Shown here: positions 13,428-52,712 of the stretch, piece by piece | How the letters are laid out: every line of letters starts with the position of its first letter | Position numbering within the stretch: the first letter of the stretch is position 1 | Origin: an uncultured Actinomycetes bacterium | Lineage (GTDB): Bacteria; Actinomycetota; UBA4738; JBBDTT01 | NCBI GenBank assembly: GCA_963742735.1 | Contig: CAVUMN010000004.1 | Location: 416,001-480,000 of the forward strand | Length of the DNA: 64,000 bases | Direction of reading: 5' to 3' | Translations under genes and position numbers: made by a program | The notes under the pieces: model-generated | What the model was told of the DNA's origin: nothing | Databases searched by the model: none | Seen by the model: the letters and a program-made list of their open reading frames with translations, nothing else

Positions 13428-13501
<74 letters not shown>

Positions 13502-18352: not shown

Positions 18353-19149
18353 TGGCGAGCGCGATCGCCCTTCGGGACGTGGGGATCCGGTTCAAGGTGC
18401 CCCGCCGAGGCCGCGGAGGTCGAGGTATCCCGCGCCTGCTCGGCCGGAGGCGCTCGAGGTTCTGGGGCATCCGCCACATCAGCTTCGAGGTCGGCCACGG
18501 CGAGGTGGTGGGACTGATCGGTCCCAACGGCTCGGGGAAGTCCACCCTCTTGCGGACGGTGTCGGGGATCTATACACCGAGCGAGGGTCAGGCCATCGTC
18601 GGGGGCCGGGTGGGCCCCCTCCTGTCGGCCGCCGCCGGCCTGGAACCGGGACTGACGGGCTGGGAGAACATCGAGCTTTCGGGGGTCCTGCTCGGCCTGA
18701 CTCGCGCCCAGGCGAAGCAGATCATGCAGCCCGTAGCGGAGTTCGCCGAGATCCTCGAGTTCATGGACGCCCCGGTCAGGGTGTACTCCGCCGGGATGAA
18801 GGCCCGGCTCGGGTTCGCGATCGCGGTGCATACCGACCCGGACATCCTGGCACTGGATGAGGTCATCGCCGTCGGCGATCAGGAGTTCCGCGACCGGAGC
18901 GCGGCCAAGATCCGCGAGTTCATCTCCGCGGGGAAGACGGTCATCGTGACCAGCCACGAGGTCGACAAGATCGCCGACCTGTGCAGCCGGTTCGTGCGGC
19001 TCGAGCGGGGCCGGATGGTCGACGACGGACCTCCAGAGAGGGTCGCCAAGAAATACCTCGATGACCACGGGGGGAGAACCCCGCGGGGCGACCTCCCGCG
19101 AGCCCGCCGGCGCCGGCAGCCGTTGTGGGCCGACGCCGACGACGCCTGA
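18352..19149 (+). CDS. Polysaccharide ABC transporter ATPase (Wzt/TagH-like)
   Basis: GPNGSGKST, LTGWENI, YSAGMKARLGFA, LDEVIAVGD. TGATG coupling to the permease. Confidence 0.93.
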   Translation: MASAIALRDVGIRFKVPRRGRGGRGIPRLLGRRRSRFWGIRHISFEVGHGEVVGLIGPNGSGKSTLLRTVSGIYTPSEGQAIVGGRVGPLLSAAAGLEPGLTGWENIELSGVLLGLTRAQAKQIMQPVAEFAEILEFMDAPVRVYSAGMKARLGFAIAVHTDPDILALDEVIAVGDQEFRDRSAAKIREFISAGKTVIVTSHEVDKIADLCSRFVRLERGRMVDDGPPERVAKKYLDDHGGRTPRGDLPRARRRRQPLWADADDA

Positions 19150-19193
19150 GGCCGATCCGTTCGACATTTCGGCAGAAATCAGCGACCGGGTAC

Positions 19194-19222
19194 TTGCCCA
19201 ACCGCGAGCGTTTGCCGATAGT
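19194..19222 (+). promoter_or_regulatory. Putative promoter of the structured RNA
   Basis: TTGCCC-N17-GATAGT. Confidence 0.5.
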
Positions 19223-19228
19223 GCACCC

Positions 19229-19454
19229 ACGAGAGGAAGGAGGTGGTCCTACTTGTCTGATGGCAGTTCGACCCTCGAGGTGACTGGCTGCTGAGTCACC
19301 CCCAGCGGGACCCGAGGCAGACCACCTCCTGAAGGTCCCGCCGCCAAGGGGAAGCTTGGCGGAATCCCAACCAGCTCACCGGCCCCGGAGGTCCCGGAGT
19401 GGTCGACCCGGGCGGCGTTCGCGCCGAGCATCCTCCGGGGTCGCTTCTTTTTTT
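19229..19454 (+). ncRNA. Unidentified structured RNA with internal 13-codon ORF and intrinsic terminator
   Basis: Stems 19238-48/19320-30, 19279-85/19294-300, 19305-12/19334-41, 19341-48/19355-62 and 19380-91/19432-43, a UUCG hairpin, and a terminal T-tract. Confidence 0.7.
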
Positions 19455-19490
19455 GCTTCGCTCCGGCCCGGGTGCGATAGGTTCCCCGGC

Positions 19491-19898
19491 GTGAGGCGGA
19501 TCGGCGCGCTCGTGTTGCTGATCGCACTGGTGGGCTGCTCCACGCCCGACCAGAGGGAGTTCTCGCCCCCCGATCGCGTCCGGCTCTCCGACGGAAGCGA
19601 GGGCGTCGACCGCGGCGAGGCCGAGGCGATCGACGGGGCGATCCAGATCCGGATGGTGGAGTTCGCCTTCGAGCCGACCGTGGTGATCGCCCCCGGTGGC
19701 TCGGCCCTGGAGGTCGAGCTCGTCAACGCCGGCCAGAACGTGCACGGGTTCGAGGTGTCCGCACTGGGGATCGACACCACGCTCGCCGAGGGCGCCCGCG
19801 AGACCGTCACCATCGCCGTGCCCGAGAACGGGGCGGTCGTTTTCGAGTGCAAGTTCCACCTGCCGCGCGCGATGCGCGGCGAGATCCGGGCCGGCTGA
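19491..19898 (+). CDS. Cupredoxin-domain lipoprotein
   Basis: Lipobox LVGC, EFAFEP, NVHGF, FECKFHLPRAMRGEI (type-1 Cu ligands His, Cys, His, Met). Confidence 0.85.
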   Translation: MRRIGALVLLIALVGCSTPDQREFSPPDRVRLSDGSEGVDRGEAEAIDGAIQIRMVEFAFEPTVVIAPGGSALEVELVNAGQNVHGFEVSALGIDTTLAEGARETVTIAVPENGAVVFECKFHLPRAMRGEIRAG

Positions 19899-20415: not shown

Positions 20416-20487
20416 GGGGGTGTAGCTCAGTGGTAGAGCACCTGCTTTGCAAGCAGGGGGTCGCCGGTTCGAATCCGGTCACCTCCA
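20416..20487 (+). tRNA. tRNA-Ala(TGC)
   Basis: GGGGGTG/CACCTCC acceptor with G3:U70, anticodon loop TTTGCAA, TACAAT -10 just upstream. Confidence 0.98.
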
Positions 20488-52625: not shown

Positions 52626-52712
52626 GGGCGGGTGGCGGAATTGGTAGACGCGCTAGGTTCAGGACCTAGTCCGGGCAACCGGGTGGGGGTTCAAGTCCCC
52701 CCTCGCCCACCA
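52626..52712 (+). tRNA. tRNA-Leu(CAG)
   Basis: GGGCGGG/CTCGCCC acceptor, anticodon loop TTCAGGA, long variable arm, encoded CCA. Confidence 0.98.

Follow-up and report, generated by a model that had tools for sequence, protein, structure and literature searches.

Dual-function small RNAs (sRNAs) that encode a small protein include SgrS/SgrT, RNAIII/delta-haemolysin, SR1/SR1P, and Spot 42/SpfP; leader-peptide attenuators and leaders that sequester a Shine-Dalgarno (SD) sequence include trp, erm, and mycobacterial Cys-rich leader small open reading frames (sORFs); and transfer-messenger RNA (tmRNA) has a tRNA-like domain and neither an SD nor a start codon. The sRNA Ms_IGR-5 (Rfam family RF02471, "Actinobacteria sRNA") was reportedly first found in Mycobacterium smegmatis. 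Here we describe an RNA, almost certainly a member of this family, that is predicted in a 64,000-nt stretch of DNA from an uncultured Actinomycetes bacterium (contig CAVUMN010000004.1, positions 416,001 to 480,000; hereafter the window), in which it occupies positions 19229-19454 of the plus strand (~225 nt). The Ms_IGR-5 sRNA most likely works by being translated: the family conserves the frame, start, and stop of a sORF, complementarity of its SD to the 3' tail of the 16S rRNA, and a covarying fold through which the sORF runs.

In passages of the published record, one Ms_IGR-5 sRNA is validated by RNA-seq in Streptomyces lividans (PMC8079986), Ms_IGR-5 is one of two Rfam-matched sRNA transcription units in S. 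avermitilis, where it is discrete (PMC8780764), and the M. abscessus and M. smegmatis homologues carry "significant ribosomal reads," i.e., ribosome footprints (PMC4974804). Ms_IGR-5 goes unmentioned in two reviews and in passages of PMC4633059 and PMC9094748, the last of which mentions the mycobacterial Cys-rich leader sORFs. In the literature searched, the supplements of PMC4974804 and PMC9094748 aside, no paper was found on a conserved sORF, 16S complementarity, or function of Ms_IGR-5, and peptide strings used as literature queries gave no relevant match.

The genome of the window (3.08 Mb, five contigs, 88.9% complete) holds a single credible RF02471 copy; two further matches were dismissed as weak (E 0.34 and 0.44). 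In an Rfam scan with relaxed E-value thresholds, the match at 19229-19449 (+) spans model positions 1-184 of 184 with a score of 43.7 bits (E 9.5e-9), and the next-best matches at the locus have E above 1; the near-matches to mir-662, Sphinx_1, CC2171, and HgcE (E 1.2-8.4) were taken as chance. No tmRNA family is among the Rfam matches at the locus up to E 10, and ARAGORN reported 0 tRNA or tmRNA genes at 19000-19700; tmRNA, which the preliminary description of the locus had named among the families to exclude, is thereby excluded. Membership of RF02471 has two points against it, in that the window RNA falls 1.3 bits short of the gathering cut-off (45 bits, an operational threshold) and the default Rfam scan, which applies gathering thresholds, returned nothing at the locus. 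A covariance model, R1, was built from 36 aligned Rfam-found matches (alignments A2 and A3) with the structure set by hand. The window scores 128.9 bits with R1 (over 19227-19414), and loci outside the R1 training set that Rfam accepts score 102-108 bits: two from Mycobacterium (L039, 176.5 Rfam bits and 108.2 R1 bits; L105, 175.8 and 102.2), one from Micromonospora (L046, 98.5 and 107.6), and one from Streptomyces purpureus (L040, 95.2 and 107.6). R1 thus joins the window with loci that score 95-176 Rfam bits, which identifies the window RNA as a true but divergent Ms_IGR-5 member, and the alignments contain invariant blocks common to the window and accepted members. We regard family membership as almost certain. 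The RNA had been described earlier as unannotated and assignable to no known family; it is instead a divergent copy of a known, functionally unexplained bacterial sRNA, not a new family, missed by the default scan by 1.3 bits. The Rfam match removes the novelty of the RNA as such, as the preliminary description itself had reasoned that such a match would.

The same sub-threshold behavior extends to relatives of the window. Among 41 genomes of the order, the Rfam model matches eight at E<=1e-3 and none reaches the cut-off, whereas R1 gives a single strong match (>=103 bits) per genome in 29 (20/27 among high-quality genomes); that 0/41 relatives reach the cut-off although 29/41 hold a homologue argues for a rebuild of the Rfam model. 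In a phylum sample of 151 genomes, the Rfam model matches 44, of which 19 are above the cut-off, with a top score of 185.6 bits. Two loci, one from an Acidimicrobiia metagenome-assembled genome (MAG; L044) and one from a MAG of Solirubrobacteraceae (L076), score 82-87 R1 bits but are not matched by Rfam at E<=1e-4. Unpublished genomes contribute to these data, and no claim depends on them alone: L008 (G031), L028 (G057), and L037 (G085) were included in alignments A1-A4, in R1, and among the 150 sequences counted below; G041 and G152 are in the 151-genome sample; and G006, G014, G027, and G031 are in the 41-genome count. One genome of the phylum sample, G060, has two Ms_IGR-5 matches on different contigs (C126:9255-9458 and C17:3902-4104; 43.9 and 41.1 bits), which may represent a duplication or a mixed bin; all others have one match each.

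The window sORF (19253-19294, +) has a TTG start, 13 codons, (M/L)SDGSSTLEVTGC, and a TGA stop, and the SD, AAGGAGGTG (19237-45), stands 7 nt before the TTG at 19253. Conservation was assessed in 150 family sequences, comprising the 36 Rfam-found sequences and 114 of the 120 sequences that a DNA pattern retrieved from species-representative genomes; the other six hits (L069, L075, L111, L117, L120, and L142) had been removed beforehand as chance, and R1 rejects them too. The pattern fixed both SD-like motifs, and left start, frame, and stop free. In 148/150 sequences, the sORF stop is found exactly 15 nt downstream of an invariant GAG, yet it is of three kinds (TAG 116, TGA 23, TAA 11). A canonical in-frame start codon is present 7-14 nt after GGAGG in 127/150 (TTG 60, ATG 48, GTG 19), giving peptides of 12 (92 sequences), 13 (22), 14 (12), or 17 (1) residues. 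The SD-to-GAG distance ranges from 28 to 43 nt across the family while the start codon remains in frame with GAG, which is a coding signature. Between SD and GAG, stops in the 150 sequences number 1 in frame vs. 105 and 67 in the other frames; in the 133 distinct start regions, an in-frame stop occurs in one (94 and 65 for the other two frames), where shuffling predicts 51.5 +/- 5.3 (minimum 36 in 300 shuffles). The sORF noted in the preliminary description is thus real in a comparative sense, with conserved frame, start, and stop, and it is likely, judging from this conservation, that it is translated.

The sORF lies within a fold that is stable on the plus strand (-113.1 kcal/mol, z = -3.02, with 0/200 shuffles as good; z = -1.77 for the minus strand). 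The outermost 5' helix, P0 (19230-33 with 19274-77; 4/4 pairs in the window), was found by RNAalifold and encloses both the SD bulge and hairpin P1; in the family, 98-99% of its cells are paired, and three of its four pairs have changed on both sides. The 11-nt unpaired 5' bulge (19234-44) contains the core SD. P1 pairs 19245-48 with 19270-73, with inner pairings 19251-53/19265-67 and 19255-57/19262-64 that place the start codon in the apical part; across the family (GGUCC/GGACC), 83-86% of this helix is paired, and one G:C pair is doubly changed to A:U. The long-range helix P2 (19279-83 with 19376-80, and 19284-87 with 19371-74, with C19375 bulged; 9/9 pairs in the window) locks sORF codons 9-12, its 3' strand region being CCAGCTCACC (19371-80), and 3-5 of its nine pairs are doubly changed in the family. 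P2b (19288-93 with 19357-62) covers the last sense codons and the stop; it is weak in the window, where 3/6 pairs are G-U, and in the family it is 81-85% paired with 3-4 of four pairs doubly changed. A local hairpin of eight Watson-Crick pairs (19341-48/19355-62), also found in relatives with different base pairs, competes with P2b. Between P2b and P2 on the 3' side is a conserved unpaired bulge, AAUCCCAA (19363-19370; family motif GAAUCC), the columns of which are nearly invariant in A2 and A3. Further downstream, hairpin P5 (19393-97/19408-12) has a loop with a conserved GGUC, and 4 of its 4-5 pairs are doubly changed in the family.

Over alignment A3, 89.8% of the cells of the proposed fold are paired, vs. 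32-47% with slid partners; 14/27 pairs are changed on both sides, and covariation scores 0.328, vs. 0.145 in shuffles (0/500 reach the observed value). On 98 R1-aligned sequences, an alignment that leans towards the model, 88.3% of cells are paired and 18/27 pairs are doubly changed. P0, P1, P2, P2b, and P5 are supported by family covariation, and all five form in the window. The preliminary description had pointed to homologues and covariation as the check on its proposed RNA; the element is conserved in 29/41 genomes of the order, and P0, P1, P2, and P5 are among the helices that covariation supports. The Rfam consensus for Ms_IGR-5 lacks P0 and P2 and includes an SD helix (GGUGGU with GCUGCC) that can form but that we rejected: it is 88% paired, with 0 double changes, and it is equaled by shuffles (500/500) and closely followed by a slide -3 control (83%); without double changes and on a par with controls, this helix is not supported.

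The coincidence of sORF and helices bears on what is being conserved. One possibility is that the element is a micropeptide gene, in which the function resides in a peptide of 12-15 residues and the RNA folds serve only to adjust its production. The conserved ORF, the very strong SD, and the recurrence of a T-x-E-V-[AT] core in four phylum-level groups are what a functional peptide would predict (family consensus M-x-S-x-R-T-R-E-V-A-V-R; window peptide MSDGSSTLEVTGC). However, the conserved residues all coincide with helix strands, the core R-T-R-E-V-A mapping onto GGAC (P1), NNNG (P0), and GGUGRCYG (P2); the GAG GUG codons carry no synonymous substitution among the 36 sequences retrieved independently of the pattern; the residue before Glu (R, L, P, C, S, or G) changes along with its P0 pairing partner; and both the N-terminal half and the three C-terminal residues vary freely, with 110 distinct peptides among 127. 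A functional micropeptide is therefore improbable. Because the conserved residues lie on helix strands and GAG GUG is never synonymously changed, it would be translation that has been selected and not the peptide product; we conclude from these comparisons that selection probably acts on translation, and that the peptide itself looks unconstrained.

The SD is extended to an exceptional length. Positions 19234-49 (+) are complementary to the entire 16-nt 3' tail of the organism's own 16S rRNA (tail sequence taken from L160), with 16/16 pairs (14 Watson-Crick, 2 G-U; -27.3 kcal/mol). Only three sites in the 3.08-Mb genome have 16 contiguous pairs; one of the others is the 16S gene antisense, and the third is richer in G-U. 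When the same 16S tail is assumed in other organisms, 126/150 family sequences have 16 contiguous pairs and 23 have 15. The final ~five nt of this complement are the P1 5' strand (19245-48 in the window), which suggests that docking of the 16S tail on the bulge displaces P1 and frees the start codon. Such complementarity might also be the function in itself, if the RNA were a decoy that holds the 16S 3' tail of free 30S or 70S ribosomes, with sORF translation as a by-product. Under this explanation the pairing at 16/16 is the best non-trivial site in the genome and is kept at 15-16 contiguous pairs family-wide (149/150), the RNA contains a second SD-like motif, GAGGUG, that does not vary (36 Rfam-found sequences), and, in the clade of the window, the RNA also displays a mimic of the 16S tail (19320-30, 10/11 identical; see below). 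A decoy leaves unexplained why start, frame, and a fixed-position stop persist while nucleotides change; moreover, the tail mimic is clade-specific, and a single-copy sRNA gene would need very high abundance to titrate ribosomes. We consider the decoy unlikely, although less so than the micropeptide.

The explanation that we favor, moderately, as the best overall is a stand-alone Ms_IGR-5 sRNA that is a translation-gated conformational switch; the comparative evidence fits best the translation-gated reading, one of several offered in the preliminary description. A transcript of ~225 nt (19229-19454, +) would start from a dedicated promoter of the housekeeping type and stop at a structured intrinsic terminator. 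Its 11-nt single-stranded bulge would present the core SD, with the 16S complementarity continuing into the P1 5' strand, so that docking of the 16S tail on the bulge could displace P1 by strand displacement and free the start codon in the P1 loop. The 13 codons that the ribosome would then read occupy the 3' halves of P1 and P0 as well as the 5' halves of P2 and P2b. Since the ORF runs through these strands, a translating ribosome would have to unzip the core of the fold; open (translated) and closed (untranslated, OFF) forms would be mutually exclusive, and the RNA would thereby act as a translation-gated switch. The act of translation would matter and not the peptide. In the clade of the window, a look-alike of the 16S tail in the P3 loop could pair with the SD instead and hold it shut. 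Candidate outputs are a trans-acting role of the GAAUCC bulge together with the P2 3' strand, or ribosome capture itself. That this coupling of translation and structure is the function of the RNA is, in our estimation, an evenly balanced proposition.

Several observations weigh against this explanation. As 114 of the 150 sequences were found via a pattern that fixes the SD-like motifs, conservation of those motifs is independent evidence only in the 36 Rfam-found sequences, and counts over related sequences are not independent of each other. Twenty-three of the 150 lack a canonical start, having CTG or ATA in frame or, by eye, ACG (five Solirubrobacterales-type sequences); one family, f14 (L022, L024-L026, L029-L032), has CTG at the conserved start position throughout. 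In L143 (1081-1245), the only clear exception to the frame rule, the sORF is in another frame relative to the GAGGUG box, with a TAG at a shifted position. Codons 2-5 of the sORF are A/U-rich at the third position (GC3 0.40), unlike high-G+C genes. The 16-bp SD/anti-SD helix may hinder initiation instead of helping it. Finally, two soil RNA-library (metatranscriptome) contigs span only 19235-19379 (no differences) and 19261-19381; carry-over of DNA is possible in these, and neither ends nor strand are shown by the contigs. The missing canonical starts and the atypical codon usage, together with the listing of the family by Rfam as a plain sRNA, are what would be expected of an ordinary non-coding base-pairing sRNA in which a purine-rich 5' hairpin happens to read as an "ORF" without any role. 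We hold this to be very improbable, given in-frame stops in 1/133 distinct regions (94 and 65 in the other frames, 51.5 expected), a stop that is fixed in position yet of three kinds, and the ribosome footprints that a passage of PMC4974804 records on homologues. As a separate observation, the Solirubrobacterales-type group has ACG or ATA at the start, and this group and f14 may be lineages with deliberately weak initiation.

The preliminary description had placed the SD in a pseudoknot with a mimic of its 16S partner, in the loop of what we term P3. P3 is a variable hairpin (outer stem 19305-12/19334-41, 8/8 pairs; inner stem 19314-17/19325-28) with a loop that contains GACCACCUCCU (19320-30), which is identical to the 16S tail segment at 10/11 positions. 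Positions 19238-48 and 19320-30 form 11/11 Watson-Crick pairs (-22.9 to -24.0 kcal/mol for the SD x P3-loop duplex), and when the central region is dinucleotide-shuffled, 0.8% of shuffles reach a run of 11 bp (p 0.008). The pairing is enriched in the order, where it is present at p<=0.05 in 14/24 sequences and as a run of >=8 pairs in 19/24, and the same-genus relative (G001) maintains it via a compensatory A:U to G:C change. Family-wide, it reaches p<=0.05 in 34/149 (7.5 expected) and is absent from most members, a point against the explanation favored above; Mycobacterium-type sequences (L011, L013) and S. purpureus (L040) do not have it at p<=0.05. The mimic pairing thus stands for the clade, with one compensatory change, and is ruled out as a family-wide pseudoknot. 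Furthermore, it uses 19245-48, which also form P1, so that the two are alternative states that cannot form together, rather than parts of one co-forming structure. We propose with moderate confidence that the SD/P3-loop pairing is a clade-specific lock on the SD; that this lock is regulatory is a more tentative suggestion. In some order-level relatives (L202, L203), P3 is itself a perfect SD-like/anti-SD-like hairpin (GAGGUG/CACCUC with a 3-nt loop), i.e., an internal copy of the SD/anti-SD duplex. A second hairpin (19279-85/19294-300, 7/7 pairs), previously thought to be switch-like, fared less well: it is present only in the window and the same-genus relative of eight order-level sequences, and, with its 3' arm absent from the other six, it was rejected as a conserved switch arm.

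A script run on the window confirmed all of the coordinates and features listed in the preliminary description, namely the promoter-like hexamers, SD, ORF, stems, UUCG hairpin, and T tract. The -35-like TTGCCC (19194-19199, +) has TTGCC or TGCC counterparts at the same distance in order-level homologues, with a family profile of TTG, and is followed after 17 nt by the -10-like GATAGT (19217-19222, +), which has A at position 2 and T at position 6; transcription is predicted to start near 19229. These elements (TTGCC/TTG at -35, TAnnnT-type at -10) recur at fixed distances upstream of 24 order-level and 114 other homologues, and the conserved -10 stands 6-8 nt before a conserved "AC" that precedes P0. 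A strict sigma-70 consensus scan called no promoter at the locus, nor did the strict scan flag the multibranch terminator; its sole terminator-like site is on the minus strand (19205-19182). This site corresponds to a 9-bp G+C-rich hairpin (19182-19205) between the stop of the ABC ATPase gene (19149) and the sRNA promoter, where it overlaps the -35 box; terminator-like on the minus strand by the scan, it could end the upstream operon on the plus strand. The 3' domain of the sRNA (19380-19454, +), which we read as an intrinsic terminator, comprises the 12-bp closing stem P4 (19380-91/19432-43, one G-U), P5, the P6 UUCG hairpin (19413-17/19422-26), and the T tract (19444-54).

In the window, the sRNA gene is flanked by the ABC ATPase gene upstream and by a cupredoxin gene downstream (19491-19898, Pfam Cupredoxin_1). 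The sRNA could in principle be a cis-acting leader, or attenuator, of the latter, in which leader-peptide translation decides read-through of the terminator: both are on the same strand, the sORF is upstream of the terminator, and the cupredoxin gene begins 37 nt past the T tract. This arrangement is local. A conserved neighbourhood was sought in four ways (the first neighbour clustering being noisy owing to high-G+C shadow ORFs) and is present only within close lineages; the largest neighbour-gene cluster covers 17/114 loci, no cluster is common to 20 loci of other phyla, and the downstream gene is convergent in several lineages. The Mycobacterium-type loci and family f14 have in common a divergent GCV_T-type gene upstream (~960 nt and ~20 nt away, respectively), and LmeA and GlnR genes lie downstream of the sRNA in f14. 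The cupredoxin gene also has a -10-like element of its own, TAGGTT (19478-83), 7 nt before its GTG, as noted previously and confirmed here by a sequence check. An attenuator is highly improbable. The conserved promoter elements, the terminator, and the variable neighbours point to an autonomous sRNA gene, as previously surmised for a stand-alone structured RNA and in line with the discrete units reported in Streptomyces, and it is highly likely that the sRNA is an autonomous transcript with its own promoter and terminator. The cupredoxin gene, with its GTG start at 19491 so close to the -10-like element, may itself produce a leaderless mRNA from its own promoter. The only gathering-level Rfam matches in the window are tRNA genes (13428-13501, 20416-20487, and 52626-52709), one of which lies ~0.5 kb past the cupredoxin gene.

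Two soil DNA contigs are identical to the window over 19210-19429 (X1) and 19210-19442 (X3). The ten letters directly before 19210 differ at 8/10 positions in the soil DNA contigs, and an earlier ACTTGCCC in X1 matches the window. Identity that begins at 19210, like RNA-library contigs confined to the sRNA, also speaks for an autonomous gene. Those parts of 19000-19700 that are not covered (flanks in X19 and X20) are no evidence of absence. Word shares in sequencing runs did not exceed 0.39, and we therefore assign no habitat or strain.

The family is not confined to Actinomycetota. The DNA pattern also matched records labelled Blastocatellia (L100, L101), Terriglobales (L062), Ignavibacteria (L041), and Syntrophobacter (L090), and R1 confirms these; in Rfam, the non-actinobacterial loci have only sub-threshold Ms_IGR-5 matches (41 and 32.9 bits) and no other family. 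Sampling with R1 of the classes around three such genomes gave one match per genome in 16/61, 6/41, and 20/41 genomes, with R1 E-values being rough and class names being the record titles of the centre genomes only. All 30 homologues fetched from the three other classes (30/30) keep the long SD and a sORF of 10-15 codons that opens in frame with ATG, GTG, or TTG and stops 15 nt past GAG, and they end in a simple hairpin and U tract at the place of the 3' domain of the window RNA. The GAAUCC bulge is present in Blastocatellia- and Ignavibacteria-type members, whereas most Syntrophobacter-type members do not show it. By these homologies, Ms_IGR-5 appears to be present in at least three classes outside Actinomycetota. 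In one genome (that of L070; L167:2230-2454), the Ms_IGR-5-like RNA has a tRNA and a group II intron domain (RF02005, 168.6 bits) within ~1 kb.

A broader reading, which we put forward as possible but doubtful, is that Ms_IGR-5 is a multi-phylum "ribosome-read" RNA (Actinomycetota, and the Blastocatellia-, Ignavibacteria-, and Syntrophobacter-centred classes), for which the SD is a toehold and translation itself is the signal. If so, the full-tail SD would restrict opening of the fold and translation of the dummy ORF to free ribosomes whose 3' tail is mature, and the RNA would report or buffer free translational capacity, as a class of regulator in which the peptide is irrelevant. The frame-conserved sORF, the whole-tail SD, the covarying fold unlike the Rfam consensus, and the presence outside Actinomycetota extend the description of the family, none of them appearing in the papers searched. 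Their confirmation would make of this orphan sRNA a model in which translation-gated RNA function can be tested.

Compared with Ms_IGR-5 members in Rfam (95-186 bits), the window RNA has the same 5' motif, sORF position, GAGGUG box, GAAUCC/CACCG box, and P5, and is likewise a single-copy intergenic gene; it differs in its larger 3' domain (a three-way junction and U tract) and in the clade-specific 16S-tail mimic in P3. Dual-function sRNAs resemble it as short independent transcripts with a sORF of about a dozen or more codons, translation being a prediction for Ms_IGR-5. In those sRNAs, however, the peptide is functional and the ORF is usually separate from the base-pairing region, whereas in Ms_IGR-5 the ORF passes through the core helices, and RNA pairing accounts for the conserved residues. 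As in leader attenuators, translation of a tiny ORF is proposed to remodel downstream pairing, and an anti-SD-like strand can hide the SD; unlike these, the window sRNA has no conserved regulated downstream gene, ends at its own terminator, and has no apparent sensing codons. The RNA is similar to tmRNA in being a highly structured, widely distributed small RNA in which ~10-13 codons would be read by ribosomes, and dissimilar in that ARAGORN and Rfam found no tRNA-like domain in the window RNA. Extended SD/anti-SD pairing is reported for Gram-positive initiation in Staphylococcus aureus (PMC13009471), and there too complementarity is longer than the classical core; in Ms_IGR-5, the complement instead covers all 16 nt of the tail and extends into one strand of a hairpin. 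This full-tail complement is no genome-wide habit (three sites of 16 nt), but is fixed in one RNA family across phyla.

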